The notes beneath the pieces were generated by a model, which did no database searches, was not told the origin of the DNA, and saw only the letters and a program-made list of their open reading frames with translations. Made by a program: the position numbers and the translations under genes. Below are positions 17,550-63,631 of a DNA stretch of 64,000 bases, piece after piece (the first letter of the stretch is position 1; each line of letters opens with the position of its first letter). The stretch comes from a virus (Duplodnaviria > Caudoviricetes), in IMG/VR virus record IMGVR_UViG_3300037471_000808, positions 5,563-69,562 of that record; one strand, given 5' to 3'.

Positions 17550-17565
17550 TGGCATGCTTCTTGCT
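17550..17565 (+). promoter_or_regulatory. sigma54 -24/-12 motif
   Basis: TGGCATGCTTCTTGCT, exact GG-N10-GC spacing. Confidence 0.6.
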
Positions 17566-17584
17566 GCAAGTAAAGCTTCCGGGC

Positions 17585-17600
17585 TGGCACAATCATTGCT
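17585..17600 (+). promoter_or_regulatory. sigma54 -24/-12 motif
   Basis: CTGGCACAATCATTGCT, near consensus. Confidence 0.65.
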
Positions 17601-17633
17601 TACCATAAAGGAGTTACAGCCTAGAAAATTTCT

Positions 17634-17662
17634 TTGACAGAACTGCAGAGTTTGCCTACCCT
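17634..17662 (+). promoter_or_regulatory. sigma70 promoter for the replication operon
   Basis: TTGACA-N17-TACCCT, 38 nt upstream of rdgC. Confidence 0.65.
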
Positions 17663-17700
17663 AGTAGTCCCATTCCTACACCACCCAAGAGACCATAATA

Positions 17701-18549
17701 ATGTTCAAAAATGCAACGGTGGTCGGCTTCAAGCCGTCCAAGAGTTTCCTGCCCATCATCCCCAACGAGCACAGGTTCACCCCGCCTTCCAGCGTCGAGC
17801 TGCTGCGCAGCGGCTGGTCGCCGGTGCGCGACGACGTCTATTGCTACGCCAACAACGGCCAGTTCCTGTTTAACTTCACGACCGAGAAGAAGATCCTGCC
17901 GGCCGCCGCGGTCAAGCTGGTGGCCGACGCCAAGGCGGCCGAGCTGGCCGAGCAGCAGGGCTTCCCGCTCGGCAAGGAGGCGATGAAGGCGCTCAAGGAG
18001 CAGGTGACCGACGAGCTGCTGCCGCGTGCGCTGACCACCCGCAGCACGACGCGGGTCTGGCTCGACCCGAAGGCCGGACGCATCGTGATCGACTCGGCCT
18101 CGAGCACGGTGGTCGACACGGTCCAGGTGGCACTGGTGCGCGCCTTCGGCGACCTCGGGCTGCAGGACGTGGCCTGGCCGCGCGCCAAGGTGGTCACCGA
18201 GTTCATGTTCACCGAGCCGGAAGGCTTCACGGTGGATGACCAGGTCGTGCTGCAGTACCCGGGCGAGCGCGGCAAGCTGGTCAAGTTCGACCGCGCCAAC
18301 CTGGGCGAGCAGGACGTGCTGCAGCACATCCAGAAGGGCGGTGCCCAGGTCTCCGCGCTGGCGATGACCTTCGACGCGAAGCTCTCGTTCGTCATGACCG
18401 ACAACGCCCAGCTGCGCCGCATCAGGGCGCTCGACGTGCTCAAGGAGACCGCTGACGCGGCCAAGGACGTCGACCGCTTCGACAGCGACTTCGTGCTGAT
18501 GACCGGCGAGCTGGGCCGGCTGTTCGATGCGCTGGCCGCCGAAGCATGA
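17701..18549 (+). CDS. rdgC: recombination-associated protein RdgC
   Basis: MFKNA...GWSPV...EKKILP...LKEQVTDELLPRA...DSDFVLMTGEL. Confidence 0.9.
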   Translation: MFKNATVVGFKPSKSFLPIIPNEHRFTPPSSVELLRSGWSPVRDDVYCYANNGQFLFNFTTEKKILPAAAVKLVADAKAAELAEQQGFPLGKEAMKALKEQVTDELLPRALTTRSTTRVWLDPKAGRIVIDSASSTVVDTVQVALVRAFGDLGLQDVAWPRAKVVTEFMFTEPEGFTVDDQVVLQYPGERGKLVKFDRANLGEQDVLQHIQKGGAQVSALAMTFDAKLSFVMTDNAQLRRIRALDVLKETADAAKDVDRFDSDFVLMTGELGRLFDALAAEA

Positions 18550-19592
18550 CCGCTTACTACAACGAATACGACAAACACGCCGCGGCCTGGCTGCGCGCGC
18601 TGATCGCCGAAGGCCTGATCGCGCCGGGCGTGGTCGATGAAAGGAGCATCGAGGATGTCACACCCGGAGACCTTGCCGGATTCGCCCAATGTCATTTCTT
18701 CGCCGGCATCGGCGGCTGGTCCCTCGCTCTCCGACTTGCAGGTGTGCCAGACAGCGCTCGAGTCTGGACTGGCAGCTGTCCTTGCCAGCCTTTCTCCGAG
18801 GCAGGCAAAGGAGCGGGGTTTGCTGACGAGCGGCACCTATGGCCCCATTTCCACCACCTCATCCGCATCAAGCGCCCTCCAAAAGTCTTTGGAGAGCAAT
18901 CTGCGAGCCGTAACACGGACCCTTGGATCGACCTTGTACACGCTGACCTGGAAGGGGTGGGTTACGCCTTCGGGTGTGTCGCGTTCCCGTCTGCGGGGAT
19001 CGGTGCGCCGCACCTGCGAGACCGCACTTACTGGGTGGCCGACTCCGACCTGCCCGGCACCGCACGATACGGACGCGACGGCGGGCCGGGCGCGGCCTCG
19101 GCCGGGCTACGGCGTGGATTTGCCGATCGCGGCATCCTTGACCGGATGGGCGACGCCGACCGCGCGGGACTATCGCTTCGCGAACGCGAAGCCCTGGTCG
19201 GAGCGGGGTGGCGGGAAGAAGGGCGAGCAGCTGAACAACCAGGTCGTGCATCTGGCGGGCTGGCCGACGCCGCGCTCGGCGGACGCGCAGAAGGGCGCGC
19301 ACCTGGAAGCGGACACCTCGCTCAAGGGTACGGACCTGCCGACGACCGCCAGCTGGACGGCGACGGACGGCCCGGCCCGGTTAACGGCTTCTGGGCAGAT
19401 GCTGACTGGCTGTTCTGCCGGGACGAGAAGTGGCGGGCAGTTGAGCCCGGCGCATCCCCGCTGGCTGATGGGGTTCCCGGCCGTGTGGGAGCGCTGCGCG
19501 GCTATGGCAACGCTGTCAATGTCTACGCCGCGAAAGCGTTCATCGAAGCCTTCTACCAAATCGAAAGGAGCCTGAATGGTGACCGATCCTGA
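18546..19592 (+). CDS. C5 cytosine DNA methyltransferase, alpha-type subunit (lacks motif IX)
   Basis: Motif [43 protein letters not shown]. Confidence 0.9.
18655..19575 (+). CDS. methyltransferase beta-type subunit in an overlapping frame (motif IX, WPTP repeats)
   Basis: SD AAGGAG-N8-ATG; three W(P/A)TP repeats; [14 protein letters not shown]; its stop abuts the next ATG. Confidence 0.75.
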
Positions 19593-19986
19593 CCTGGCCA
19601 AGGTGCGCGCCATGTGCACCCGGCTTGGCCAGCTGTGGATGCCGGACCCGGCCAGCTGGGCTTGGCGCCGGCCGGACGGCATGGTGCAGGGGCTGGCGCA
19701 CATCTACGCCGACAACCCGGGCCTGGCCAACCTGCTGTGGCTGGCGCTGGACATGCCGGCACCGCCGCGCCAGTACAACGTGACCGACAACCTGCTGGCT
19801 GTTCTGGTGCTGGCCCAGGCCAGCCGTTCGAAGCTGAACGGCGTGCCGCTGCTGGACGTGGCTGCCCTGCGCACCCTGGCCGAGTTCAGCCGGCTGCTGC
19901 CGGAGGCACGCATCGCCGGTAACGAGCTGGAGGGTGCGTATCCGGTGCTGCGCCTGCTGGCGCTGCGGAGGCTGCGCGATGCGTGA
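19576..19986 (+). CDS. hypothetical protein
   Basis: SD AAGGAG; TGA-ATG coupling. Confidence 0.7.
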   Translation: MVTDPDLAKVRAMCTRLGQLWMPDPASWAWRRPDGMVQGLAHIYADNPGLANLLWLALDMPAPPRQYNVTDNLLAVLVLAQASRSKLNGVPLLDVAALRTLAEFSRLLPEARIAGNELEGAYPVLRLLALRRLRDA

Positions 19987-21674: not shown

Positions 21675-21728
21675 CTCTCGGAGTAGAATCTTTCCTCCGA
21701 GCAGTATCCTTTCAGCGAGTAATAATAA

Positions 21729-22217: not shown

Positions 22218-22224
22218 GGACTGC

Positions 22225-25183: not shown

Positions 25184-25212
25184 TTGACACTGATCAATAA
25201 GTTTGACATACT
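25184..25212 (+). promoter_or_regulatory. sigma70 promoter
   Basis: TTGACA-N17-CATACT in an AT-rich gap. Confidence 0.65.
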
Positions 25213-25267
25213 GACTTCTCCCTAAGCCGGGCAGGGCAAGCCCGGCACAACGATGACTTTAACTTCA

Positions 25268-26071
25268 AAGGAAATGAAAATGGCACTGAACAAAACCACC
25301 GCCCCCGCCTTCGAAAACCCGGACGACGACGTTGCCACCCTGGAAGACCAGGCGGCCGCGCAGCGCGCCGCGGCCCAGGAACGCCTGCAGGCCGCTGCCA
25401 ACAAGCATGCGGCAGCCAAGCCGGCCGAAACGGCGCAGAACACCGGCACCGCGCTGACCAAGCCGACCAGCGGCCAAGTGGCCAAGGCCAAGCCGATGCT
25501 CAACCCGCTCGAGCCGCTGAAGGACGCCTATCCGGTCGAGTACGACACGCTGCGCAACCTGCAGATCAACCAGGGCAACGTGATCGACCGCGAAACCGGC
25601 AAGGTGCTGGGCGACACGATCGGCCTGGAGCTGCTGTCGTTCCAGGACCAGTGGGTCATCGGGCCGGGCGGCGACGACAAGTCGGAAGCCTCCAAGGAGC
25701 TGGTGCGTTACTCCAACGACGGCATCACCACCACCAAGGGTGAGGACTGCAAGGAGTACCTGCAGTTGCTGAAGGACACCGGCCACAAGGAAGCCAAGAT
25801 GACCGAGCGTATGGTGATCTGCGGTTCGGTGTTCGACATCGGCGTCAAGGGCAAGAAGGACCTGCCCGATCTGCAGGATTCGCTGGTGCAGATCAACCTG
25901 CCGCCGACCTCGAAGGCCGCCTTCAAGCGTTACCAGATGGACCAAGCCTTCAAGATCGCCAAGAACCTGATCGAGGCAGAAGGTGCACAGCGCGTGAAGA
26001 TCGAATGCAACCTGCAGTCCAAGGGCGACAACAAGTGGACGGTGGCGAGCTTCAGCCGCTACGACGCGTAA
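25268..26071 (+). CDS. replication protein, possible ssDNA-binding protein
   Basis: Strong codon bias, own promoter and terminator, SD AAGGA; the function is a positional guess. Confidence 0.75.
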   Translation, partial: KEMKMALNKTTAPAFENPDDDVATLEDQAAAQRAAAQERLQAAANKHAAAKPAETAQNTGTALTKPTSGQVAKAKPMLNPLEPLKDAYPVEYDTLRNLQINQGNVIDRETGKVLGDTIGLELLSFQDQWVIGPGGDDKSEASKELVRYSNDGITTTKGEDCKEYLQLLKDTGHKEAKMTERMVICGSVFDIGVKGKKDLPDLQDSLVQINLPPTSKAAFKRYQMDQAFKIAKNLIEAEGAQRVKIECNLQSKGDNKWTVASFSRYDA

Positions 26072-40718: not shown

Positions 40719-40729
40719 AGGAACCCACC

Positions 40730-43968: not shown

Positions 43969-44564
43969 CAGCACTCCTCGAGCCAGCCGTCGGTCAGGAA
44001 GCCGTGGTAGCCGGGCGTCTGAATCGACGGGCGCGCGGTCACGTCCGGTACGGTGCCGGTACGCGTCCAGCCGACCTGGTCGCGGGGAGCGTTACTGGCC
44101 GGGCCGTCGATGACCCACCAGCGACCGTCCGGCAGCTTGCACTGCAGGTGTTTGCCGTCCGGCCCTGGCTGGTAGCCTCCCCCGAAGTCGTGCAGCCAGC
44201 CGGCGTAGCGCAGTGCCCCCGGCGGCGCGCTGCGGTCGGTCATCAACTCGCCGGTGTCGGCGCGCCGGTACAGCGTGTCAGGGTTGAACTGCCAGTTGTC
44301 GGACGGCGTGAACGCATAGCCGCAGGCGCAGTGGGTCGGCCAGCGCGGATCGTCATGCGGCCACAGGTCGCCGTGCACCGCGCCATAGACGTACTTGGAA
44401 ATCTTAGGCATGGCGGCCAGCGCGTCATCGCCGATCTCGGCACTGGCATTGTGGTAGCCGTGCACAGGGCATTCTCCCTGCAGCCCGCCGCTCGCGCTGT
44501 AGCGGCGCAGCGACATGCGCACCCGATCGGTCGGCTCAATCAGGAAGCAGCGGACACGGTTCAT
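43968..44564 (-). CDS. Cys/His-containing hypothetical protein within the lysis cassette
   Basis: ATG 44564; CPVHGYH, HCACG, WTRTG...TARPSI...YHGFLTDG. Confidence 0.75.
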   Translation of the reverse strand: MNRVRCFLIEPTDRVRMSLRRYSASGGLQGECPVHGYHNASAEIGDDALAAMPKISKYVYGAVHGDLWPHDDPRWPTHCACGYAFTPSDNWQFNPDTLYRRADTGELMTDRSAPPGALRYAGWLHDFGGGYQPGPDGKHLQCKLPDGRWWVIDGPASNAPRDQVGWTRTGTVPDVTARPSIQTPGYHGFLTDGWLEEC

Positions 44565-45214
44565 ACCAAGGCCTCCAGCAGTTCGTTGGTCAGCGCCCGG
44601 CGCTCGGCCAGGCCATTGTTGCCGCCGTTGACGGCGCGCGAGACCGCGTCGGTCTCGCCGGCCTCGGCCAGCGCGTTGAGCGAGTGGCCAAGTCCGTTGC
44701 CGACGTGCCAGAACCAGCCGGCCGCCAGGCACCCAGCCTCCGGCTGCTCGAGCATCTCGGGCGAGTTGACCAGGTCGATGCCGAGCAGCGCGCCGCAGCG
44801 CGCGTAGTTGTCCTTGCCGGTCAGCTGGATCGGGCCGCGGCCGCGGTAGCGCCAGCCGTCGTCCGAGTGGATCGGCCCGTTACCCATCCGGCTGCCGTAG
44901 GCGATGTTGGCGATCATGCGCTGGTCGGCCGGGTGGGCGGCGGTGCGCCCGTACTGCGCCGCCAGCGCGGGCGTGAAGCGCTGGGCCTTCGGCGTGTTGA
45001 AGGTGGCCAGCAGGGCGGCCGCGCTGTAGTTCAGATTCTCGACCAGCCGCGTCAGGTTGCCCGACTCGTGCAGCAGCTGGGCGACGAAGTGGGCCTGCTG
45101 GCGCGGCGTGGCGATCTCGAAGCGGCGCATCGCCGCAGTGATCGCCGGCAGCCACAGGCCAGCGCGGGCCGCGCCCAGCGATGGCACCGCGCGCAGCAGC
45201 TGGGCGTCGTTCAT
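44561..45214 (-). CDS. endolysin, glycoside hydrolase family 19
   Basis: AQLLHES, ENLNYS, DGWRYRGRGPIQLTGKDNY, VNGG.NG; ATG 45214. Confidence 0.93.
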   Translation of the reverse strand: MNDAQLLRAVPSLGAARAGLWLPAITAAMRRFEIATPRQQAHFVAQLLHESGNLTRLVENLNYSAAALLATFNTPKAQRFTPALAAQYGRTAAHPADQRMIANIAYGSRMGNGPIHSDDGWRYRGRGPIQLTGKDNYARCGALLGIDLVNSPEMLEQPEAGCLAAGWFWHVGNGLGHSLNALAEAGETDAVSRAVNGGNNGLAERRALTNELLEALV

Positions 45215-45444
45215 TCTCTGTGGGTGCGGCGCACGCTGGCCGCCATGTTGTAGACCACCGCGGCGAAGCCGACCGCCTTGTAGATGTTCTCGGGCAGGTA
45301 CGGCGCCAAGTTCGGCAGGTTGGTGTTGACCGCGTTCATGATGTCGGCGGAAAACGGCAGCATCGCGACCAGGGTCGCGTTGACCCAGGTGGTCACGCGG
45401 CGCAGCTCGGCGACGACGGTGTCTTTCAGGGTTTGCAGGGTCAT
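45211..45444 (-). CDS. holin-like membrane protein
   Basis: Hydrophobic 77 aa directly before the endolysin; ATG 45444. Confidence 0.7.
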   Translation of the reverse strand: MTLQTLKDTVVAELRRVTTWVNATLVAMLPFSADIMNAVNTNLPNLAPYLPENIYKAVGFAAVVYNMAASVRRTHRE

Positions 45445-45674
45445 GACGAGACTCCTTTGCGGGCACGCCGGCGAGCCAGCCAGGCCTGCACGGTGGCGGT
45501 TTCGTACAGCCGGATCAACGACCACAGCAGGGTGATGATCGTCGTCACGCCCGGGATCAGCTGGAACAGCGCCGTGATCAGCAGCCCGATCGAGGCGACG
45601 TCCAGGTGCGGCTTGATCGGCTCAAGGCTCTCCCAGAAGGTCTCGGCAGTGTGTTTGAGTTCGCCCAGCGTCAT
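45441..45674 (-). CDS. second holin/antiholin-like membrane protein
   Basis: DVASIG...TIITLLWSLIRLYET, basic C-terminal tail. Confidence 0.7.
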   Translation of the reverse strand: MTLGELKHTAETFWESLEPIKPHLDVASIGLLITALFQLIPGVTTIITLLWSLIRLYETATVQAWLARRRARKGVSS

Positions 45675-45766
45675 GCGCGCGCCTCCAGGTCGTTGTCGAA
45701 CAGCTCGGTTAAGAACGCGCGAAGCATTTCGCCCCAGAACTGCGGCATGAGCACCAAGATCTCCAT
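45671..45766 (-). CDS. 31-aa leader ORF of the lysis cassette, not in the ORF track
   Basis: MEILVLMPQFWGEMLRAFLTELFDNDLEARA*; SD GAGGG; ATGA overlap. Confidence 0.55.
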   Translation of the reverse strand: MEILVLMPQFWGEMLRAFLTELFDNDLEARA

Positions 45767-45820
45767 GATTTCCCTCAAGAAAAGATGTAGAAATTCTAGG
45801 CGTTATTGAACGTGCCGTCT

Positions 45821-45837
45821 AGCAAATGTTATGCCAG
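45821..45837 (-). promoter_or_regulatory. sigma54 -24/-12 motif upstream of the lysis cassette
   Basis: CTGGCATAACATTTGCT. Confidence 0.7.
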
Positions 45838-45845
45838 GGTAATTC

Positions 45846-46340: not shown

Positions 46341-46371
46341 CGCGGCAACCTCCACAGGAAAGTTGCCGGAA

Positions 46372-46400
46372 AGTGTAACATGCGTGTGGGAAATTTTCTA
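46372..46400 (-). promoter_or_regulatory. possible sigma70 / extended -10 promoter
   Basis: TAGAAA-N17-TACACT with TG-N before the -10. Confidence 0.4.
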
Positions 46401-46403
46401 AAA

Positions 46404-46850: not shown

Positions 46851-46860
46851 GTAGTTCCTT

Positions 46861-50622: not shown

Positions 50623-50660
50623 GGCTCTTGCGGTGGATTAAGTTCCGATAGGCAAGAGCA

Positions 50661-50676
50661 TGGCACAATTCTTGCT
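50661..50676 (+). promoter_or_regulatory. sigma54 -24/-12 motif, antisense to the tail genes
   Basis: TGGCACAATTCTTGCT in a 60-bp gap. Confidence 0.55.
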
Positions 50677-50682
50677 CCCGGT

Positions 50683-52266: not shown

Positions 52267-52269
52267 GGC

Positions 52270-53301: not shown

Positions 53302-54774
53302 TTAGACCAGCACCTGCAGAGTGACGCGCCGGGTCTTCCAGTCCGGCGCGCGGGAAAGGACGATGCCGACCGCGCCGGCACCAAGGTTAAAGCGCGAGTT
53401 GAACAGCCGCACCGGATCGCCCAGCTGCAGGGTCAGGCACGGCGCCAGCGCCTCGAATTCGTAGACGGTGCGCTGGACCTTCCACAGGTCGCGCTGGCGC
53501 GCCGCCTCGGCGGCGGCGTCGCTGCGGCGCAGCAGCAAGGTGTCCTGCTGCTGGGGGTCTGCGGTCAGCTTGTAGGTCGCCTGCACGGTCGCGTCAGTCG
53601 CGGTTTCGGTGCGCCACTCGGTCGCCATCAAGTCCTTGTGCGCAGCCGGCAGCGCGGTCTGCAGGTCCTTCTGCACGGTCCAGTTCTTGCAGAATCCCAG
53701 CTTGACGGCCGCCACCACATCCGGGCGCTGCGCGATCTTCAGCGACTTCTCGACCATCATCGACGGCAGGATGTCGGTCGGCGTGCCGGCCGGCGGCAGG
53801 CTGATCTGGTACAGGCGCAGCTGGCCGGTCGGCGACGGCAGCAGCTGCGCGCCGACCGAGGCGGCCAGCTGCTGGCAGGCCGCCAGCACGTTGGTGCGGT
53901 CGGTGATCGGCAGGCCAATCGGCTGCGGGTGGGCAGCGTCGAACGCGGTGAAGTTGGCCGTGTCGATCTCGGCCAGGGTGAAGCGGTCGGCGCTCTTGCC
54001 GAACCCGGTCGCCAGGCGCTGAATCGTCGCCGCGATCGTGTTGGCATAGGTCGACGGCTTGTCGCCCTGCACGCTGGCGGTGACGCCGCCGGCCGACGAC
54101 TGGCTCAGCGTGAACTTGCCGGTGGCAAGGTTCACGCTGATCGCATCCACCGGCAGGCCATTGTCGCGCACCTCGATGATGCGCTCGATCGGGCCGTCGT
54201 GCACCTGGTACTCGAGCGTGGTCGGGTCGGTCAGCAGCGGCGTGATGTTGAACGCCTCGCCAAACACCAGCGGGATGATTTCGTCCTTGTTGCTGGTGGT
54301 GCCGCCCAGCTTGTGCTCGGTCGCCGCCGCGTTCAGGCGCACCAGCTTGTCGCGGATCTTGATGTTCAGGACCTCCCGGCCCTTGCTGTCGAGGTTGGCC
54401 ACGAGGCCGTTGAACACCATCCGGAAGTCGGCGCGCGCCCAGCGCACATCGCCGACCCAAGCGGTGACCGGGGTGTTGGTCCACACGTAGCCCAGCCAGG
54501 TGTCGCGCACCCCGCCGTAGTTGTGCACCTCGATATCGCCCACCGTCAGCGCCGCGCTGCCGTCCAGCGACAGCGCCTCGGTCGGCTTGATGCCGGTGCC
54601 GCACACGCCCAGGTAGGGCGTGTTGGCCGGCGTGTCGGCCGCGCCGGTGGTGTAGCCGACGGTGGCCAGGTACAGCGGCGTGGCCACGCCCGCGATCAGC
54701 GGGGCCACCTCGATCAGCGTCGTGGGCCGGGCCGACGGGTCGGTCAGCCAGGCGGCAAATTCAGCGTCGGTCAT
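53302..54774 (-). CDS. tail tip/hub protein
   Basis: Directly after the tape measure; IPLVFGEAFNITP, VRDNG. Confidence 0.8.
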   Translation of the reverse strand: MTDAEFAAWLTDPSARPTTLIEVAPLIAGVATPLYLATVGYTTGAADTPANTPYLGVCGTGIKPTEALSLDGSAALTVGDIEVHNYGGVRDTWLGYVWTNTPVTAWVGDVRWARADFRMVFNGLVANLDSKGREVLNIKIRDKLVRLNAAATEHKLGGTTSNKDEIIPLVFGEAFNITPLLTDPTTLEYQVHDGPIERIIEVRDNGLPVDAISVNLATGKFTLSQSSAGGVTASVQGDKPSTYANTIAATIQRLATGFGKSADRFTLAEIDTANFTAFDAAHPQPIGLPITDRTNVLAACQQLAASVGAQLLPSPTGQLRLYQISLPPAGTPTDILPSMMVEKSLKIAQRPDVVAAVKLGFCKNWTVQKDLQTALPAAHKDLMATEWRTETATDATVQATYKLTADPQQQDTLLLRRSDAAAEAARQRDLWKVQRTVYEFEALAPCLTLQLGDPVRLFNSRFNLGAGAVGIVLSRAPDWKTRRVTLQVLV

Positions 54775-57700
54775 TGGATCACCTCGGTGTTGCGGTTCTG
54801 CCAGGAGGCAGTGGCAGCCCCCTGTTCGATGCCGGCCGCCACGCTGTCGGCGATGGTGGCCGCAGCACTGAGCGTGGCACTGGTCAGCTGGTCGGTCTGG
54901 TTCGCCTGCCCGCTATTCAAATTGGCCAGCTGCGCGATCAGCGCGTCGATCTGGGCGCCGGTCGGGCCGTTGGTCACGGTCACGCTCTGGGCCTCGTTGG
55001 CATGGCTGCTCGACATGCTGCCGCTGTACAGCATGTCCGGGTGATGGTCCCGGTACTCAGGGCTGTGCGTCATCGCGTCGGCGACCTCGGCCATCGTGGC
55101 ACCGCCGGCCATCGCCTGCTGCCAGAAGGCAAGTCCGCCAGCGTCCGAGTGCCGCCCCAGCAGTCCCTGGTACAGTGCCTCGATGCCGGCGGTCTGCCCC
55201 GCCGCCGCGCTTCCGCCGAGTCCGACGTCGCCGCCCTGGGCGAGCGCACCCGCCAGCGCGACCACCGCGTCGTGCACCGACATCACTTCCTTCTTGACCT
55301 CGATCAGGCCGGACACCTGGTCGTGCAGCGCCTTCAGGCTGTCCTTGGCGACGTCGACCTGCTGCGCCGCCCAGCTGGCCGCGTCGGCGGTGGCTGACAT
55401 CACGCGGGCGAAGTCGGCGCTGTAGGTGCTGGACGACGAGAACGCGTCGCGCGAGGCCTGCAGGAACTTGTTGGCGACGTCGCTGTAGTTGTTCTGGGCA
55501 TCGACGTCGCCGTTCTTGGCCGCCGTCAGCGTCTTGTTGAACTCGTCCTTGGCGGCGTTGTACTTCTCCAGCGGCGTCAGCGGCGACTTGTCGCCCAGCT
55601 TCAGGTCGATCAGCAGCTTCTGCCAGTCGGACGACAGCTTGCCCATCCGGTCGCGCAGGTCCTCGAGGGTCTTTTTCTCGGCCTCATACGCGTTGTTCAG
55701 GTCGTCGCGCGCGTCCTTGACCTTCTTGGCCGCCTGCACCTGGTCGAACAGCGCGCGGTTCGATTCGTCCAGCTGGGCGCGCTGGATCGCGGCCAACTCG
55801 ACGTCGGTCTTGGTCAGCTGGTTCAGCTGGCCCTGCAGATCCTTGCGCTCGCTGGCGATCTCGGCGGCCGTCTTGGCCACGCCGTTCAGGTCCTCCAGGT
55901 TGCCGGTCAGGTTGTCGGTGTATTCGGCCACCTGCAGGAACTGCGGTGCCAGCGCCATCAGCGCGGCGTAGGTCTTGCGGCCTTCGTCAGTCGTCAGGTT
56001 CAGGCCCAGCACGGTGTCGCGGAACGCCGTCTTGGTGGTCACGCCGGCCAAGCCCAGGCTGCCCATCGCCGCGTCCAGCTGCTGCTTGACCGGGGCGATC
56101 TTCTGCGCCTCGCTCAGGAAGTTCTGGGCGAAGAACGCGGTCTCGGTGTTGAGCGCGTCGACGCTGCCCACCGCCTGCACCAGGGCTTCGCGCGCGTTCA
56201 TCGAGGCTAGGCCGACCGCGCCGAACACGGCCTGCATCGACTTGCCCATCTGCTGGGCGACGACGTCGGTCGCGCTGAACACGTCGGTCACGCGTTTGAG
56301 CGCGGCGCTGGTGGCCTCGGTCGGCAGCTTGAGCGCGGCCAGCTGCTCGAGCGTGACCTTCTCGCCGAACACCGCTTCGCCAGCGTCGCGCAGCGCGGCG
56401 CGGTACTGCAGGATCGCGCCGGCCTCGGTGGCCAGCTCCTGCGAGGTGCCCTTGAAGCCGTCCACCAGCGACGACAGCCCGCCCTGCACGCCGTCCAGGA
56501 TGTTGCGGATGCGCGCCGTGAACACGGCGTCGAGCTGGCCGTTGGCGTTCGGGTCCGAGCCCTCGTGGCCGGTGTCGACCGTCAGCGACTGGCTGCTCAG
56601 GTAGTCCTTGACCTGGCTGCGCTCGCCTGCGGTCAGGAACGCCGCCAGCACGTCGTCGACCTTGCCGACGGTGGCGACGAAGTCGGTGATCTGCTTGCTC
56701 TTGGTGTCCATCCAGAAGCCGCCGGTCGCCCCGAAGGTGCCGAAGGCGCTGGTCGACGCCGAGCTCAGATAGGGGATGTTGTTCCCCTCGTTGCCGTGGT
56801 GGTTGATGTCGACGTTGCCCGGCAGGTTGTTGCTGCCGAAGGTCAGGCTGGTGTGGTCTTCCGGCCCCTTGTCGAACAGGAACGAACCCAGCACGGCCGC
56901 GCCCATCGCCGCCCAGCCCCAGCCCGGGATCGCGGCGATCGCGGCATTGACCGCCGCACCAGCGCTGGCCGCGGTCGTCAACTCAGCCCCACCCAGCGCA
57001 GCGGATGCGGCACCAGCGGAACCGGACAGGCCAGAAAGAAACTCGCCAGCGACCCCCGACACGGAAGTGAGGCCAAGTAGGCTGCCGGCCCCGCCGATCG
57101 CGCTGCCGATGCTGCCAATCGTGCCCAGCGCGCTACCGGCGGCGCCGCCGCCGAGGCCGCCCAGCAGGCCGTTGCCGGCCATGCCGGCCGCCGCGCCCGC
57201 CTCGATCGAGCCGCCGATCTGCAGCAGCCACTTCTTGGCCGTCATCTGCCACAGCAGGTCGAGGATACCGGCGCGCAGCGCATGCGCGACCCGGTCGACG
57301 AAGCTGATGCCCTCGTCGCCCAGGTGCAGGAAGGCCTGGCGGCCGCCATCCATGATGTCTTTCCAGACACTCTTCCACTCGTCACCGTACGGGCTGGACG
57401 TCTTGGACAGATCCTTGCCCAGCTTGCTGATCTCGATGCCGGCCGCCTTGGCCTTCTCGGCCAGCTCGGGCAGGCCGGACCGGCCGGCGATGTCCTGCAG
57501 CTGGCTGGCCAGCTGCTGCACCTGCGGCAGCAGCTGGGTGCGGATGCCCTGCGCGGCGTCGGCCACGCCCAGCGCGCCCAGCAGGCCGCCCTGCTCCTGG
57601 CCGGTCTCCTTGGCGCTGGCCATCTGGGCGTTGATCGTGCGCACCAGCGAGTCGAGCTGGTTCTTCACCATGTCGAACTCGGCGTTCTTGACGCCAGCGT

Positions 57701-60700
57701 CCTTCTCGCTCGCCTTGGCGCGCAGCGCGATCGTCAGCTCCAGCGCGTGGTTGTAGGCCTTCAGCGCCTCGGTGTTGTCCGGGTCGACGAACAGGATCGC
57801 CGCCAGCGCATCGCGGTCGATGCCCTTCAGGTCGGCGTTCATGCGCGCGATGGCGGTGCCGTTGTCCGCCTCGAACTTGGTCAGGTAGGCGTTGACCAAG
57901 TCGCCGCTGCGCTTGTACTCCTCGGCCTGGGTGGTCAGGTTCTGGCGGTGCAGGCGCTCGAAGTAGTCGGCCTCCTCGATCGCCAGCTGGCGGTCGATCT
58001 CGCCCAGCCGGGCCTGGCCGACCTGCTTCTGGTTCTGGTACTTCTGCTCGGCGGCACGCTTGTTCTCGGCGCCCTGAACCACGGCGATGTCGGCCTGCGC
58101 CTGGGCGATCGCATACCGCACCGACTGCTTGGCGGCCTCGGCCTTGGCTTCCATGTAGGCGACGTCGCCCAAGCCGCCGGACTGGTGCTGCGACTGCAGG
58201 TCGAGCAGCGCGGTCTTCTGCTTGACGTCGAACAGCTCCTTGGCCAGGGCGTTCTCGGCGATCTGCGCCTGCAACGCATCGCGCTCGGCCTTCTTGTCTT
58301 CCTTCGGCGCGCGCGGCGCCAGCAGCGCGTTGCGCTCGTCCTGGAGCTTGCGCAGCGAGACGCTCAGCGCGTTGACGCGTGCCAGCTCATCCTTCGGGTC
58401 CGGCAGGATCTGCTTCGCGTCGAGCAGGGATTCCCACAGCGGCGCCGCCTTCAGGCTGACCGCGCGTACGGCCGCATTCTGCTGGTACAACTCTCCCTTC
58501 GAGTCGCGCTCGCTGGCCTGGGCATAGAACTTCGCCAGCTCGTCGCGCAGCTGCGTGGTGGCGTTCTGCGCCTTCTCCAGCGCCTGCTTCGGGCCGACCA
58601 CGTCATCGCTAAACAGCTTGCGACTCTCCAGCCCGGCCAGATTCTTGTCGGCCTTGGCAATGGCTTCCGCCAGCCCGTCATAGCTGCGCGTGAGCGTGAC
58701 GACGCCGCTGCCGGCGTCGTAGCCGGACTCCTGGGGATGGCGGATCTCGTCCGGGTCAAAGCCCCTGCGGCGTGCCTCCTGCTCGAGTTTTTGGACCTGC
58801 GCGCGGGCGGCGTCCACCGCGCTCTGGGTCACCGTCTCCGGGGCCAGCCGGACGCCGTTCTTTGCGTCCCACAGCTTCAGGTTCTCGTCCAGCCGCTTAT
58901 TCTCGCGCTCAAGCGCCTCGTCGACCACCTGCAGCGAATTGGCGATCTTCTGATTGGTCTTGTCCGCCTCGTCGGTATTGTCGCGGAACAGCAGCCAGGC
59001 CGCAGCCCCAAGTCCGACCGCCACGGCAACCGCGCCCAGCACCGGCAACAGGGTTGCCGACCACGCTGCGGACGCGACGGTTGCGGCCTCGGTCGCGGCC
59101 GTCTGCGCGGTGGTGACGGCGGTCACCTCGGCCGCCGTGGCGGCACCAGCGACGTTGGCGGCGGTCAGCGCGCCCATTGCCGCCGTCTCGGCCGCCTGCG
59201 CGGCCGACAGCACCCAGCTGGCAGCAGCGGCCTCCTTCAGCAGGCCGATGGTCGGCCCCAGCGCGCGCAGGCCGACATAGCCGGCACCGACCAGGGTCAC
59301 GGTGCCCAGGTTGTCGACCAGCGCGCCGGTCAGGCGGGCGACGTTGGTGGAGAAGTTCTGCAGGCCGGTCGAGGCGCTGCCGCCGTCCTTGAAGGCGTCG
59401 GTCAGCTCCAGCGCGATGTGCTGCACGTATGGCGAGGCCTGGGCGAACGCGCGCACGAAGCTGTTCTGCACCACCACGCCCAGGCGCTGGAAGCCGCCAG
59501 TGGTGTCGTCCTCCAGCTTCCTGACGACGTCGGCCATGAAGCCGGACGCGGTGGCCGCGTCCTGCACCTTTTCCTTGTAGGCGTCCAGGTTGCTCAGCGC
59601 CAGCTCGGCCGCCTTGGTGCCGCGCACCGTGAAGATACTGCCGAGGAAGTCGACGCGCGCGGCATCGGTGAAGCCGGCCAGTTTGCCCTTCAGCTCTTCA
59701 AGCAGCTGGGTGAACGGCTTGAGCTGGCCGGATGCGAGCGACGTCTCGACGCCCAGCTCCTTGAGCGCCTTCTTGCCCTTCTCGGTCGGCTCGTACAGGC
59801 CGGTCAGCATATTGGTCAGCGACGTGCCGGCGGCGCCGCCGGTCACGTTGATCTTGGCCAGCAGGCCAAGCATGCCGGCCGTCTCCTCGATCGACACCTT
59901 GAACAGCGAGGCGACCGTCGAGGCCTGCTTCATCGACTCGGTCATCTCCAGCACCGAGGTGTTGGAGTTGGCCGCGGTCTTCGCGAAGATGTCGGCGACG
60001 CGCCCGGCCTCGCTGTAGCCCAAGCCGAACGCCGAGGCGGCACCAGTGGCGGCCAGCGCCGCCTGGCCGACGCTCATCTCGCCGGCAGTGGCCAAGTCCA
60101 GAATCGCCGGCAGCACCTGCAGCGACTCGGACGCGTTCAGGCCGTTCTGCGCCAGCATGCGCATCGCGTTGGCGCCCTCGACCAGCGAGTGCAGCGAGCC
60201 GTCCGACACCTGTAGGAACTGGTCCAGGTTGACGCCGCTGCCGGTGATCGCCAGCACGTTGGTCAGCTGGTGCTCGACCTGAGCGCCGACGTCGACCACC
60301 TGCCGCAGCGAGCCGGCAATGGCCGCGCCCGCGGCCAGCGGCACCAGGCTGCCGTAGGTCAGCCACAGGCCGCCGAGGGAACCGGCCAGGCCGCGCGCCA
60401 GGCTGTGCGCCTCGTTCATCGCGCGGTTGTGCGCCTCGGTCGCGCTCGTCGAGTTGGCCACGGCCGGGGTCAGCGCCGCATGGGCTGCGCGTAGCGCTTC
60501 GACGTCGGACGCGACCGCCACACTGCCGTAGCGCTCAATCGCGCCCTCGCGGGTGGCGCCGGGCTGCTGCAGGTAGGTCTGGGCCTGAGTGGCGCTGCGG
60601 ATCTGCGCGGCCGGCCCGGCCGTCATGAAGTTGGTGTTCAGGACCCGCTGGCGCTCGGCTGCAGCCTCGGCAACCGCCAGCTGCCGCGCCGTGGCCGCCT

Positions 60701-61355
60701 CTTGAACGGCAAGCGTCCGGTCCCACCAGGACACGTAATCGGCCAGATCACGCTGGCGCATTGCATGCAGCTCGATGTCACGCCGCTGTTCGATCGCCTC
60801 ACGTTCAGCGGCCGCCTTTGCCCACCAGGAAACATAGTCGGCGGCAGCCTTCTGCTGCATCGCGTTCAGCTCGACATCACGGCGCTGCTCGATCGCCGCG
60901 CGCTCGGCGGCCGTCTTTTCCCACCACGCGGCGTACTCGGCAGCGGACTTTTGGCGCATCCGATTCAGTTCGGTGTCGCGGCTCTCCTCAATCGAGAGCA
61001 TCTTGTCCCACCAGCTGACGTAATCAGCCATCGCTTGGCCGCGCAGGCGATTCAACTCGACATCGCGGCGCTGGTGGACGTTCAGCGTCTTGGCTGAGGC
61101 CCGCTCAGCAGCGGCGACGGCCTCGTTTTCGACCTTCTGCGCCAGCGCCGCCACTGCGGCGAAGCCGGTGGTCATCGACGCCTGCATCAGCTGCATCTGC
61201 TGCTCGAGGCGGGTCAGGCCGGAGACGGCCCCGAGCCCTTGCAAGGCATCGTGCAGGCGGTCGAGGGCCGTGACGATCCGCTCGATGCCCTCGGCACCGC
61301 TGGACGTTACAGGTACGTCAATCGGGCCGCCTACGCCCTCGATGCCTTCGCTCAT
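54771..61355 (-). CDS. tape measure protein
   Basis: 2194 aa, Ala-rich helical; TP901-type core (NTSVLEMTESMK); TM-like Gly-rich region; DUF4214-like C-terminus. Confidence 0.93.
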   Translation of the reverse strand: MSEGIEGVGGPIDVPVTSSGAEGIERIVTALDRLHDALQGLGAVSGLTRLEQQMQLMQASMTTGFAAVAALAQKVENEAVAAAERASAKTLNVHQRRDVELNRLRGQAMADYVSWWDKMLSIEESRDTELNRMRQKSAAEYAAWWEKTAAERAAIEQRRDVELNAMQQKAAADYVSWWAKAAAEREAIEQRRDIELHAMRQRDLADYVSWWDRTLAVQEAATARQLAVAEAAAERQRVLNTNFMTAGPAAQIRSATQAQTYLQQPGATREGAIERYGSVAVASDVEALRAAHAALTPAVANSTSATEAHNRAMNEAHSLARGLAGSLGGLWLTYGSLVPLAAGAAIAGSLRQVVDVGAQVEHQLTNVLAITGSGVNLDQFLQVSDGSLHSLVEGANAMRMLAQNGLNASESLQVLPAILDLATAGEMSVGQAALAATGAASAFGLGYSEAGRVADIFAKTAANSNTSVLEMTESMKQASTVASLFKVSIEETAGMLGLLAKINVTGGAAGTSLTNMLTGLYEPTEKGKKALKELGVETSLASGQLKPFTQLLEELKGKLAGFTDAARVDFLGSIFTVRGTKAAELALSNLDAYKEKVQDAATASGFMADVVRKLEDDTTGGFQRLGVVVQNSFVRAFAQASPYVQHIALELTDAFKDGGSASTGLQNFSTNVARLTGALVDNLGTVTLVGAGYVGLRALGPTIGLLKEAAAASWVLSAAQAAETAAMGALTAANVAGAATAAEVTAVTTAQTAATEAATVASAAWSATLLPVLGAVAVAVGLGAAAWLLFRDNTDEADKTNQKIANSLQVVDEALERENKRLDENLKLWDAKNGVRLAPETVTQSAVDAARAQVQKLEQEARRRGFDPDEIRHPQESGYDAGSGVVTLTRSYDGLAEAIAKADKNLAGLESRKLFSDDVVGPKQALEKAQNATTQLRDELAKFYAQASERDSKGELYQQNAAVRAVSLKAAPLWESLLDAKQILPDPKDELARVNALSVSLRKLQDERNALLAPRAPKEDKKAERDALQAQIAENALAKELFDVKQKTALLDLQSQHQSGGLGDVAYMEAKAEAAKQSVRYAIAQAQADIAVVQGAENKRAAEQKYQNQKQVGQARLGEIDRQLAIEEADYFERLHRQNLTTQAEEYKRSGDLVNAYLTKFEADNGTAIARMNADLKGIDRDALAAILFVDPDNTEALKAYNHALELTIALRAKASEKDAGVKNAEFDMVKNQLDSLVRTINAQMASAKETGQEQGGLLGALGVADAAQGIRTQLLPQVQQLASQLQDIAGRSGLPELAEKAKAAGIEISKLGKDLSKTSSPYGDEWKSVWKDIMDGGRQAFLHLGDEGISFVDRVAHALRAGILDLLWQMTAKKWLLQIGGSIEAGAAAGMAGNGLLGGLGGGAAGSALGTIGSIGSAIGGAGSLLGLTSVSGVAGEFLSGLSGSAGAASAALGGAELTTAASAGAAVNAAIAAIPGWGWAAMGAAVLGSFLFDKGPEDHTSLTFGSNNLPGNVDINHHGNEGNNIPYLSSASTSAFGTFGATGGFWMDTKSKQITDFVATVGKVDDVLAAFLTAGERSQVKDYLSSQSLTVDTGHEGSDPNANGQLDAVFTARIRNILDGVQGGLSSLVDGFKGTSQELATEAGAILQYRAALRDAGEAVFGEKVTLEQLAALKLPTEATSAALKRVTDVFSATDVVAQQMGKSMQAVFGAVGLASMNAREALVQAVGSVDALNTETAFFAQNFLSEAQKIAPVKQQLDAAMGSLGLAGVTTKTAFRDTVLGLNLTTDEGRKTYAALMALAPQFLQVAEYTDNLTGNLEDLNGVAKTAAEIASERKDLQGQLNQLTKTDVELAAIQRAQLDESNRALFDQVQAAKKVKDARDDLNNAYEAEKKTLEDLRDRMGKLSSDWQKLLIDLKLGDKSPLTPLEKYNAAKDEFNKTLTAAKNGDVDAQNNYSDVANKFLQASRDAFSSSSTYSADFARVMSATADAASWAAQQVDVAKDSLKALHDQVSGLIEVKKEVMSVHDAVVALAGALAQGGDVGLGGSAAAGQTAGIEALYQGLLGRHSDAGGLAFWQQAMAGGATMAEVADAMTHSPEYRDHHPDMLYSGSMSSSHANEAQSVTVTNGPTGAQIDALIAQLANLNSGQANQTDQLTSATLSAAATIADSVAAGIEQGAATASWQNRNTEVIQ
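60708..61073 (-). repeat. four 29-33-aa WW-containing repeats in the tape-measure N-terminus
   Basis: WW at aa 115, 144, 177 and 210. Confidence 0.85.
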
Positions 61356-61359
61356 AGAA

Positions 61360-61396
61360 AAGCCTCCATTGGAGCAACATTATCCAATGGAGGCTT
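61360..61396 (-). promoter_or_regulatory. 14-bp hairpin covering the tape-measure SD
   Basis: AAGCCTCCATTGGA-N9-TCCAATGGAGGCTT; GGAGG lies in the 3' arm. Confidence 0.85.
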
Positions 61397-61406
61397 GTTG
61401 TAGGCA

Positions 61407-61422
61407 AGCAATTACTGTGCCT
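61407..61422 (-). promoter_or_regulatory. sigma54 -24/-12 motif upstream of the tape measure gene
   Basis: AGGCACAGTAATTGCT, exact spacing. Confidence 0.55.
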
Positions 61423-61759
61423 GCTGCTTGCGCCTCTCTGCCATGTAGGCGAGGTAGACGTTGTCGAGGGCCACCACGTGTCGGACAAGCCGCTCCCGTT
61501 CGCTCAGGTTGGTGATGTTGAACAGGTCGCAGTAATCTCGGATCTTCGGGATGACGTCCAGCGCCAACGGTCCTGACATACTGGCCTGCCGCCCGCGCGC
61601 GATCAGCTGGTACGCGCCGTAGTAGTAGGCCTGGCGGAGGTCGAGAACGGGGCGGTCGCGTAGTGCTACCGGGTCCTCCCCGTCCGCCTTCAGCTGCTCG
61701 AGGAAGCCAAGTTCAGGCCCCCACTGGAGTTCCCAGCGGAGGTAGGCACCGAGTTTTTT
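61412..61759 (-). CDS. tail assembly chaperone extension reached by -1 frameshift (G-T type)
   Basis: -1 frame is open from the slippery site to TAA at 61412: KLGAYLRWELQWG...IRDYCDLF...LDNVYLAY. Confidence 0.85.
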   Translation of the reverse strand, partial: KKLGAYLRWELQWGPELGFLEQLKADGEDPVALRDRPVLDLRQAYYYGAYQLIARGRQASMSGPLALDVIPKIRDYCDLFNITNLSERERLVRHVVALDNVYLAYMAERRKQQAQ

Positions 61760-62160
61760 GCGTCGGCCTCTTCGGTCTGGTAGCGGAAGTTGCGGAATTC
61801 AGCCGCCAGCGCGCCGATCGCCCGCTGGAACTCCTTATGTTCGAGCATCATCTGGGCGTTCGGGATGCTGTACTCGATCGGCTTGCCCTGGTAGCCGAAG
61901 TCCTCGTAGCCGAGCAGTACGGTGTGCGCCATCACCTCGGCCATGATCAGGTTCGAGCGGCGCTCGGCAGCCTGCTGCTGGGCCGGCGTGTCCTTCTGGC
62001 TCAGCTCGTGCTTGTACTGCTCATAGCGGGCCGTGATCATGCGATTGTAGGCGGCGTTGCCGGCGCGCGCGACCAGCACGCGGCCGGTGCCGAACGGGAA
62101 CCAGCGACCCTCCTGCTCGGCTTTCGGGTCGACCGCGTACTCGGCAAAGATATCAAACAT
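61690..62160 (-). CDS. tail assembly chaperone (G type)
   Basis: MFDIFAEY; between tail tube and tape measure; A-AAA-AAC slippery site at 61753-61759. Confidence 0.85.
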   Translation of the reverse strand: MFDIFAEYAVDPKAEQEGRWFPFGTGRVLVARAGNAAYNRMITARYEQYKHELSQKDTPAQQQAAERRSNLIMAEVMAHTVLLGYEDFGYQGKPIEYSIPNAQMMLEHKEFQRAIGALAAEFRNFRYQTEEADAKNSVPTSAGNSSGGLNLASSSS

Positions 62161-62191
62161 AGTATTTTCCCTGGTGAGTTGTGGAGCGGCC

Positions 62192-62220
62192 AGTGTACGC
62201 AAGCTGTTGAACATTGTCAA
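62192..62220 (-). promoter_or_regulatory. sigma70 promoter for the chaperone gene
   Basis: TTGACA-N17-TACACT. Confidence 0.75.
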
Positions 62221-62240
62221 AAGGAAAGCTGACGCAAAGC

Positions 62241-62273
62241 AAAAAGGGCGCAGCCCTTGTTGGCACTGCGCCC
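62241..62273 (-). terminator. Rho-independent terminator after the tail tube gene
   Basis: GGGCGCAG...CTGCGCCC followed by TTTTT on the minus strand. Confidence 0.8.
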
Positions 62274-62299
62274 ACCCACTTCCCCACCACGAGAAGATC

Positions 62300-63538
62300 T
62301 TACGGCGTCACCGCCGCGCCGAAGCGGTCCAGGAACATGGTCGCGCGCAGCGCGGCATTGGCGTTGGCCTTGTCCGCGTAGGCGGTGAACTCGAAGCTGG
62401 CCATCAGGTCGGTGTTGCGGCCACCGGCGTTGACGCTGGCCTTGGTCAGCATCACGCGCGGCAGCGAGATCACGTAGCCGTTGCCCAGCGAATCCTTGGT
62501 GGTCAGGCAGATCGACGTGTAGACGTCGTTCGCGTACTTGTCGAACAGCGCGCCGTTGGCGAAGTACACCTCCAGGGTGCCGGTCACGGCGAAGGTGCCG
62601 ATGCCCACGCCCACCAGGCCCAGCACGCCAAGGCCGTCCTGCGCGCGCAGGCCCGAGTCAATGTCGAACTTCATCGACTTGATCGTGGTGCCGGCCAGCG
62701 GCGCGCCGTTCTCCCAGATGTTGGCCACGCCGGTGACGCCGTTCTGGATGTCGTAGGTCTGCGACGCGGCGGTGGTGCCCGGCAGCGTGGTCGCGCCGCC
62801 CTTGATCATGTCCTTGCCGAGCGTGGTGAAGGTCACGTCGGTGATCGACTTGCTGGCGAACTGGGTCGAGAACTTCGACACGTACAGGCCGCGGTAGGCC
62901 ATGTACTGGCCGATCTCGCTGATCTGACGCTCGATCGTGAACGACTGCATCGTCACGCCGTTCTTCAGGCGCGAGGTCGACAGCGAGCTGCCGGCCACCG
63001 CGGTGGCGGCGGTCAGCGGCGTGTTGACGTCGCAGGTGACGGTGGTCGGGGTCGGCGCCACGGTCAGCGACACGCGCGCCAGCTTGCCGTCGTTCGGGTC
63101 GCCCGGCATGTTGACCTTGAACCACTGGCCCGGGGCCAGCGTGGTGAACGCGTTGGCGTTGATCGGTGCGGCGCCGGCGGTGATCACCGACGCCACCGTG
63201 CCGAGCGTGCCGGCGGTGACGCTGGCCGAGAAGGTCGAGCCGACGCCGTTGGTACCGTAGGCCGACCAGGCGCTGCGCATCAGGCCGGCGAACAGGCGGT
63301 CGTACTCGGCGTACTGCATGTGGCCCTTGATGTCGCCGTCAGCCTGGGCACCGGTGGTGGTCGACGAGGTGTTCTCGGCGTTGGCGTTGAGCTCCTTGTC
63401 AGTCTCCTTGGTCAGGTTGAACTGCAGGGTCTCACCGGTGGTGCGCAGGTTGTAGCCGTTGCCGGTGGTCGGCGTCACGCCGAACGTGGCTTCGGGGATG
63501 TAGGCAAGCTGTACGCGGTCGGCTGATGGCAGCGGCAT
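62300..63538 (-). CDS. major tail tube protein
   Basis: LAYIPE.TFG.TP...LRTTGE.L...ADGDI...VTGTLEVYF; internal Ig-like insert; strong codon bias. Confidence 0.9.
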   Translation of the reverse strand: MPLPSADRVQLAYIPEATFGVTPTTGNGYNLRTTGETLQFNLTKETDKELNANAENTSSTTTGAQADGDIKGHMQYAEYDRLFAGLMRSAWSAYGTNGVGSTFSASVTAGTLGTVASVITAGAAPINANAFTTLAPGQWFKVNMPGDPNDGKLARVSLTVAPTPTTVTCDVNTPLTAATAVAGSSLSTSRLKNGVTMQSFTIERQISEIGQYMAYRGLYVSKFSTQFASKSITDVTFTTLGKDMIKGGATTLPGTTAASQTYDIQNGVTGVANIWENGAPLAGTTIKSMKFDIDSGLRAQDGLGVLGLVGVGIGTFAVTGTLEVYFANGALFDKYANDVYTSICLTTKDSLGNGYVISLPRVMLTKASVNAGGRNTDLMASFEFTAYADKANANAALRATMFLDRFGAAVTP

Positions 63539-63614
63539 AGTAGTGCTCCAAGGTAAAATTTCCGCCAGTCTACCTTGGCTGTTCCGTCACGTGTTGCAAA
63601 GTTTGCTGTATAAC

Positions 63615-63631
63615 AGCAATTTTCATGCCAG
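63615..63631 (-). promoter_or_regulatory. sigma54 -24/-12 motif upstream of the tail tube gene
   Basis: CTGGCATGAAAATTGCT. Confidence 0.7.

Follow-up and report, generated by a model that had tools for sequence, protein, structure and literature searches.

Conserved sigma-54-type boxes, many interlocked with sigma-70-type promoter elements, in an uncultured tailed phage and its relatives

A clade of tailed phages carries, at several conserved gene boundaries, boxes that match sigma-54 (RpoN) promoters in sequence and spacing, and most of these boxes are interlocked with ordinary sigma-70-type promoter elements in fixed registers. Here, we describe the boxes, TGGCA-N6-TTGCT and close variants, in a stretch of 64,000 nucleotides of an uncultured tailed phage (hereafter, the window; bases 5563-69562 of a single 69,562-bp IMG/VR virus record, IMGVR_UViG_3300037471_000808) and in the genomes of its relatives. 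Judged by its conservation, the motif is real and functional, and its reader is most likely the sigma-54 polymerase of the host.

The -24/-12 consensus of sigma-54 promoters consists of GG and GC at fixed spacing; Barrios et al. reportedly gave it in 1999 as TGGCAC-N5-TTGCW. The sigma-54 holoenzyme forms a stable closed complex and does not start transcription without an AAA+ activator. Our preferred reading, which we regard as an evenly balanced proposition, is that the boxes dock host sigma-54, those that are co-directional with a gene perhaps serving as tandem promoters that need a host activator, and those that overlap other promoter elements or are reversed acting by occupancy.

Boxes in the window and their conservation in relatives

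A preliminary description of the window had listed five exact TGGCA-N6-TTGCT sites (17550 and 17585 on the plus strand, 45821 on the minus strand, 50661 on the plus strand and 63615 on the minus strand) and a sixth, AGGCAC, variant (61407, minus strand), had placed all of them at gene boundaries and had noted their match to the sigma-54 consensus. Each of these sites is present (Table 1), all six are intergenic or touch a stop codon, and both the sequence and the spacing agree with the -24/-12 consensus. The accompanying estimate of about 0.5 chance occurrences was too high: 0.09 exact sites are expected against the five found, and none of 100 dinucleotide-preserving shuffles reached five, so the enrichment over a composition-matched background is stronger than had been stated. 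The 5.5 kb of the record outside the window contain no further site. Four of the six sites are co-directional only, the one at 17550 faces gene starts on both sides, and the one at 50661, which lies 38 nucleotides from the ATG of the gene at 49201-50622, is antisense.

The record is linear, about 88% complete according to CheckV, and has a G+C content of 65%; it is truncated and ends at the tail terminator gene (window 63976-64000). Relatives were fetched via the tail tube protein, with which theirs share 50-72% identity, and seven complete relatives (81-94 kb) were assembled; the truncated record and these seven are the eight genomes compared below. The relatives' head module, portal, terminase and main control region are not in the truncated record. 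The strict motif occurs 21 times in the relatives' loci against 0.66 expected. The core TGGCA-N6-TTGC is found at 45 intergenic and 12 coding positions in the eight genomes, where intergenic DNA makes up about 20% of the sequence. A co-directional gene start lies downstream of 30 of the 45 intergenic sites, and the other 15 are antisense to both neighboring genes.

Orthology of the flanking genes was tested by tblastn, and the slots proved to be kept between relatives at 46-77% protein identity. A reverse box is located at the portal start in all seven complete relatives. The exonuclease ortholog is preceded by a forward box, 98-135 nucleotides upstream, in six of the seven, and relative G001 has a tandem second box at this slot as well. 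Upstream of the holin-like gene, a forward box is found in the window phage and four relatives at a distance of 145-153 nucleotides, and the register of the lysis promoter, with its 17-nucleotide spacing and a spacer of variable sequence, recurs in G001, G003, G004 and G008. At the tape-measure slot, the orthologous boxes are the variants AGGCAT in G001 and TGGTAC in G005, the search pattern behind them having required GG and TGC; two further relatives (L004 and L008) have the promoter-plus-hairpin layout of this slot without a box. The reverse box between tail genes at 50661 has an ortholog in G001. A reverse box also lies upstream of a connector-like gene, just past a terminator, in seven of seven relatives, this slot having been assigned by position rather than by tblastn. 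At the tube slot, only the window phage and its closest relative, G001, have a box, and all eight phages keep a -10-like TAGACT or TAGAAT in the tube leader, about 35-40 nucleotides before the ATG.

Across orthologous sites, the spacers drift and TGGCA(C/T) and TTGC stay fixed, so the motif behaves as a bipartite recognition element. Non-orthologous slots of the same genome likewise have the full 16-bp motif in common, with spacers that are unlike.

In several relatives, a forward box lies within the head-protease gene, and downstream of it come a ribosome-binding site and an ATG, possibly the start of a nested scaffold gene. At this head-maturation-protease gene (L013:3888-3990, plus strand; orthologs in G004, G005 and L008), the conserved box is fused to TTGACA-N17-AATACT, an arrangement suggestive of a promoter inside the gene that drives a nested scaffold-like product. 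Boxes are also found in the divergent early/late control region of the relatives. The same region in G001 (40470-41140; L024:470-1140) and G004 (14060-14700; L027) contains arrays of four to five copies of the dyad repeat ATAGGCYAGGYCTAT and AT-rich palindromes such as TTTTCAAAAATTTTTGAAAA; these dyads and palindromes could be operators, iterons or packaging signals.

Table 1. Boxes, promoter-like elements and selected genes of the window, and the double helix-turn-helix gene of the relatives
Feature	Position	Strand	Context
Box TGGCATGCTTCTTGCT, first of tandem pair	17550..17565	+	41 nt from the ATG (17508) of the minus-strand Gp80-like fibre gene
Box TGGCACAATCATTGCT, second of tandem pair	17585..17600	+	co-directional with the replication operon; exonuclease ATG 100 nt on
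Weak sigma-70-like promoter TTGACA-N17-TACCCT	17634..17662	+	between tandem boxes and exonuclease; below scanner threshold, tentative
Recombination-associated exonuclease, first gene of replication operon	17701..18549	+	PHROG 724 at 9e-56; followed by methyltransferase, helicase, primase
C4 zinc-finger protein, 80 amino acids	29157..29399	+	kept in six relatives; CxxC...CxxC invariant in six orthologs
Endolysin	44561..45466	-	PHROG 181 at 2e-75; Glyco_hydro_19 domain among scanned open reading frames
Sigma-70-like promoter TAGACG-N17-TAGAAT	45793..45821	-	called by scanner; -35 hexamer begins at last base of lysis box
Box TGGCATAACATTTGCT	45821..45836	-	ahead of lysis cassette
Box TGGCACAATTCTTGCT	50661..50676	+	60-nt gap between two minus-strand tail genes, antisense to both
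Tape measure protein, 2194 amino acids	54771..61355	-	multiple tape-measure PHROGs, down to 1e-47
14-bp hairpin followed by UUUUCU	61360..61396	-	directly before tape-measure ATG; fold -25.8 kcal/mol, z -4.66
Sigma-70-like promoter TTGCCT-N17-GATAAT	61379..61407	-	called by scanner; -35 hexamer begins at last base of tape-measure box
Variant box AGGCACAGTAATTGCT	61407..61422	-	overlaps stop codon of small open reading frame upstream of tape measure
Tail tube protein	62300..63538	-	PHROG 290 at 2e-57; tblastn matches annotated tail tube/major tail protein
Box TGGCATGAAAATTGCT	63615..63630	-	76 nt before tail-tube ATG, 42 nt upstream of conserved -10-like TAGACT
Double helix-turn-helix protein, about 100 amino acids	L024:127-462, L027:13767-14057, L036:8797-9099	-	all complete relatives and two motif-less lineages

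Register with sigma-70-type promoter elements

Most of the intergenic sites (32 of 45) stand in one of three fixed registers with sigma-70-type elements. For an overlap to count, either TGn and a -10 hexamer carrying A2 and T6, or -35 and -10 elements separated by a spacer of 16-18 nucleotides, had to occur at a fixed offset from the box. The first register (16/45) places an extended -10, TGCCAnAAT, on the opposite strand at a single fixed offset; the second (11/45) is a same-strand TGG-CAYnnT that starts from the first base of the box; in the third (5/45), a -35 hexamer begins at the last base of the box. Among lone intergenic TGGCA sequences, which served as the control, such -10 elements accompany only 23 of 397 and 12 of 397, respectively (p 7e-8 and 2e-6).

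The layouts are distributed by slot. The -35 hexamer on the last base of the box is found at the lysis and tape-measure slots, and an extended -10 made from the TGGCA/TGCCA half at the portal, connector, fibre and tail genes; the opposite strand of the box at 17550, for instance, reads TGCCAGAAT, an extended -10-like element. The third layout is a leaderless start that abuts the box. Several relatives have, at the portal slot, an ATG 6-7 nucleotides past the -10 and no ribosome-binding site, and in six relatives, the ATG of a gene for a small protein with two helix-turn-helix domains abuts a box that doubles as its -10, 6-7 nucleotides before it, so that this gene, too, looks leaderless; a sigma-54 start from the abutting box would fall inside the gene. 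Reverse boxes face the terminator of the upstream gene. At the tape measure, the hairpin between box and gene holds the -10 GATAAT in its loop and GGAGG in its 3' arm, and the predicted sigma-54 start of the box coincides with the foot of this terminator-like structure. A sigma-54 transcript would thus meet the hairpin, and a sigma-70 transcript would escape it.

The position of the TTGC half relative to the sigma-70 start differs between these layouts; therefore, sigma-70 alone cannot explain why TTGC is conserved. Given the overlapping and antisense layouts, many of the boxes cannot be simple promoters for the adjacent gene, either.

Several other interpretations of the surrounding sequence were dropped. 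The tube box was considered as a replacement of the sigma-70 promoter of motif-less relatives, an idea abandoned when all eight leaders turned out to keep the -10-like TAGACT or TAGAAT; the tube box is a supplement that lies upstream of this -10 and would fit a tandem sigma-54 promoter. A near-palindrome, AGAAAATTTC, downstream of two boxes did not hold up as an element of its own, at least two of its three copies being better explained as sigma-70-like -10 regions (TAGAAT, TAGAAA). The likeness of TTGCTT to the T4 MotA box was ruled out by an unfitting spacing to the -10.

Candidate readers of the boxes

The preliminary description had seen no GAFTGA loop in any open reading frame and had proposed that late transcription uses host sigma-54, with a search of the rest of the genome for an activator as one check. 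We find no GAFTGA in the six frames, no Sigma54_activat (PF00158) match in the phage record even at E<=10, and none above the curated cut-off in the whole record or the seven complete relatives; sub-threshold matches in the eight genomes consist only of 12-15-bit P-loop fragments. No upstream activator site common to the boxes was seen in a search that was not exhaustive. Searches for a phage sigma-54 and for sigma-70 regions 2 and 4 gave no matches, and neither did a search for a single-subunit (T7-type) polymerase, a weak negative given that the control search for this family matched nowhere. A bulk Pfam scan of the 83 remaining open reading frames found no helix-turn-helix, winged-helix or AAA+ domain. 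Absences in the truncated record count as weak evidence. With no phage activator gene, boxes that fire would need a host activator or a factor of an unknown kind.

An alternative account is that the boxes are conventional sigma-54 promoters of a positive regulon, opened by a hijacked host activator or an unrecognized phage one, the reverse copies making antisense RNAs. The canonical motif and spacing speak for it, as do the four of six window sites that are co-directional with a gene 41-146 nucleotides downstream, the forward slots kept before lysis, tape-measure, exonuclease and scaffold-region genes, the tube box that stands clear of sigma-70 elements like an upstream tandem promoter, and the reported need of Pseudomonas phage YuA for host sigma-54 (PMC5053324). 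Nevertheless, a third of the intergenic sites (15/45) face away from every adjacent gene start, the box in six relatives ends on the ATG of the very gene to be expressed, reverse and tape-measure boxes would start transcription at the foot of terminator-like hairpins, independent promoters have no need for the exact -35/-10 register, and neither an activator gene nor a common activator site turned up in the searches described above, so we consider this account unlikely. The late sigma-54 regulon of the preliminary description shares part of this fate. Its consensus match, enrichment and lack of a recognizable activator stand, the sites are conserved in relatives, and its target genes, the tail tube, tape measure and lysis cassette, were named correctly, as verified with PHROG profiles and tblastn. 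Its restriction to late genes fails: the tandem pair at 17550/17585 faces an exonuclease-methyltransferase-helicase-primase operon, which is not late, and other boxes lie in the relatives' early control region. Given the replication-operon slot, the 15 antisense sites of 45 and the sigma-70 register, to speak of a late regulon whose activator is missing would be an oversimplification.

The motif could instead be read by a DNA-binding protein other than sigma-54, its likeness to the consensus being coincidental. Its two halves, TGGCA and TTGCT, are direct TKGCW repeats one helical turn apart, as would suit a monomer with two helix-turn-helix domains, and the relatives encode such a protein, with two HTH_23 domains and a best PHROG match to 'late transcriptional activator' at 2e-9; in the window phage, the gene falls in the part missing from the truncated record. 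A box covers the start of this gene, as would be the case under autoregulation; transcription factors typically work in either orientation; and the box center lies at about -43 of a sigma-70-like promoter at the lysis, tape-measure and scaffold-region sites. Where a box is forward, such a protein would activate from about -43, and where a box overlaps the -10, it would repress. We rejected the double helix-turn-helix protein as the leading candidate, however: two motif-less lineages retain it with an almost identical C-terminal recognition helix, and one of these has no box in 21 kb of structural genes, compared with four to five in box-bearing relatives. The score of one ortholog is that of a small terminase subunit, and the gene is always just upstream of the large terminase. 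The protein may be either a late regulator or a small terminase subunit. For any reader of this kind, an 11-position match to sigma-54, spacing included, is very unlikely to arise by chance, the boxes lie at too many different positions with respect to sigma-70 starts to fit a single activation mechanism, and the 83 scanned open reading frames yielded no other DNA-binding domain. A reader other than sigma-54 is, in our estimate, quite improbable, and this holds equally for the dual activation-repression model.

By far the least credible explanation is that the boxes have no function and are by-products of sigma-70 extended -10 and -35 elements in AT-rich gaps, spread by shared ancestry. It is true that an extended -10 with TGnCA accommodates both TGGCA and TGCCA, that sigma-70-type elements coincide with many of the copies, and that orthologous copies share descent. 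By-products would not be expected to carry a TTGC half at fixed spacing no matter whether the layout puts it into the spacer, onto the start site or upstream of the -35, nor to repeat the whole 16 bp with differing spacers at slots of the same genome that are not orthologous; lone intergenic TGGCA rarely has such elements, and the chance expectation is far exceeded.

These comparisons favor docking of the host sigma-54 polymerase, although the mechanistic steps beyond the layout of the sequence are our inference. A docked sigma-54 polymerase would exclude sigma-70 polymerase at overlapping sites, and overlapping or reversed boxes would then constitute a switch or brake coupling the use of phage promoters to the sigma-factor balance of the host. 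The co-directional boxes, at the tube, lysis and exonuclease operon slots and in the early control region of the relatives, may, in addition, fire as sigma-54 promoters in tandem; with no activator encoded by the phage, their opening would require a host enhancer-binding protein.

Several observations weigh against this interpretation. The tube box overlaps no sigma-70 element, and a brake role is therefore impossible there. The promoter scanner called nothing at 17400-17800 or 50500-50800, and weak sigma-70-like hexamers are easily found in AT-rich gaps. The invariance of GG and TGC was partly imposed by the search patterns, and a one-mismatch search for tolerated box positions was too noisy to help (84 intergenic versus 153 coding matches). 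The p-values overstate the evidence, since orthologous sites do not count as independent observations. Moreover, a brake on the phage's own late promoters is without a demonstrated benefit, and the presence of rpoN in the host is deduced from the near-universality of this gene in Proteobacteria; it is almost certain that a Gram-negative host has it.

A stronger version, which we regard as doubtful, is that the clade uses host sigma-54 polymerase as a ready-made repressor rather than a transcribing enzyme, with unactivated closed complexes sitting, in either orientation, on boxes that are in register with the sigma-70 promoters of the phage. Phage promoter use would then follow sigma competition in the host, for example during starvation with guanosine tetraphosphate (ppGpp), and might be tuned by a TraR-like protein. 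A candidate for the latter is the 80-amino acid C4 zinc-finger protein (Table 1): the top match of its clade profile in the PDB is TraR, over the full length (E 0.012), and it matches Pfam zf-dskA_traR below the cut-off (E 0.32), which is no more than suggestive of a TraR/DksA-like protein. If TraR-like, the protein could shift sigma-factor competition. The repressor scheme, if true, would amount to a growth-state-dependent brake on virion production that needs no phage-encoded regulator. In a more radical variant, a phage protein of unknown fold would open sigma-54 complexes without an AAA+ activator.

Genomic setting and comparison with known systems

In the window, small early genes on the plus strand are followed by a short fibre cassette on the minus strand that includes the Gp80-like gene (Pfam Gp80, 1e-31; ATG at 17508). 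The replication arm on the plus strand encodes exonuclease, methyltransferase, helicase, primase, DNA polymerase, ligase, thymidylate synthase and SbcCD, and the late arm on the minus strand, lysis genes, tail proteins, tape measure, chaperone, tube and tail terminator. The lysis cassette consists of a small open reading frame, the holin-like gene, the endolysin gene, whose true start is probably internal to 44561-45466, and embedded spanins: a 194-amino acid frame with an N-terminal membrane segment (43390-43974, minus strand) contains, in another frame, an 83-amino acid one (43476-43727, minus strand) with the lipobox LLASC and a proline-rich body. This Rz/Rz1-type embedded layout points to a Gram-negative host.

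Megablast of the late arm (44000-64000) against GenBank phages found no near DNA match, only a 34-bp match in the endolysin gene. The tube protein and the polymerase are at most about 31% and about 28% identical, respectively, to those of isolates (phages of Dinoroseobacter, Pseudomonas, Vibrio and others). Bacterial genomes yielded no prophage relative, and the window has no tRNA.

Additional promoter-like elements were observed in both arms. A terminator-like hairpin 3' of the tube gene (62258-62244, minus strand) is followed by a strong sigma-70-like promoter, TTGACA-N17-TACACT (62220-62192, minus strand), which precedes the tail assembly chaperone; with a hairpin and a promoter between them, the tube gene appears to be transcribed separately from the chaperone/tape-measure genes. 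In the replication arm, the gap before the gene at 25253-26071 contains a sigma-70-like TTGACA-N17-CATACT with a GC-rich hairpin after it, at about 25185-25215 (plus strand). Among the small genes covered by the bulk Pfam scan (window 1-17000 and L037), single open reading frames encode a DnaJ domain (1.5e-19), HIRAN, PAPS reductase, HNH and DUF4376; to our knowledge, J-domain proteins are uncommon in phages.

Compared with bacterial sigma-54 promoters, the phage boxes have an identical core sequence and spacing, with GG and GC one helical turn apart, are intergenic and, in many cases, are co-directional with a gene 40-150 nucleotides downstream. Unlike those promoters, they occur in a phage that lacks a gene for an enhancer-binding protein and a recognizable upstream activator site, about one third are antisense to both neighbors, and most overlap sigma-70-type elements in fixed register.

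The published use of sigma-54 by phages rests mainly on YuA, for which Ceyssens et al. reportedly described sigma-54-dependent late promoters in 2008; our literature search found no closer published precedent. In the GenBank record of YuA (NC_010116.1), three fragments are annotated as active '-24/-12' promoters; they precede the scaffold gene and the tape-measure region. None of the three (L019:8392-8570, 10888-11035 and 17152-17312) contains a canonical TGGCAC-N5-TTGC, and the first (L019:8392-8570) has a textbook sigma-70 pair, TTGACC-N17-TACAAT; with no canonical motif in its annotated fragments, YuA was rejected as a sequence model. Like the window phage, YuA is a siphovirus with about 64% G+C and no RNA polymerase of its own, and its promoter slots are similar. 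The two are not closely related, the nearest relatives of the window tube protein being about 27-31% identical, and the motif described here is much closer to the consensus. The lack of a near DNA match, a tube identity of at most 31% and the absence of the motif from the YuA fragments place the window phage outside the YuA/M6 group (Yuavirus). According to PMC5053324 and PMC10914365, YuA development depends on host sigma-54, and one of these two papers calls phage use of sigma-54 rare; what these texts say of YuA mentions neither reverse nor overlapping layouts.

The clade combines textbook boxes at conserved slots with the lack of an activator gene and the interlocking of most boxes with ordinary promoters. 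If sigma-54 polymerase binds them and host enhancer-binding proteins are hijacked, the timing of lysis would be linked to a host signal; if it binds and the closed complex is exploited, the host would supply the brake. Either outcome, if true, would represent a new layer of phage-host transcriptional coupling.

Occlusion of overlapping sigma-70 promoters by the sigma-54 holoenzyme is known in bacteria, and in Escherichia coli and Salmonella, non-productive or intragenic sigma-54 sites are widespread. The phage boxes resemble these in that a bound, unactivated sigma-54 polymerase would block the overlapping sigma-70 promoter and in that some orientations serve no gene. They differ in that the overlap is systematic and register-locked, in that a phage clade keeps it at several slots in each genome, and in being viral rather than chromosomal.

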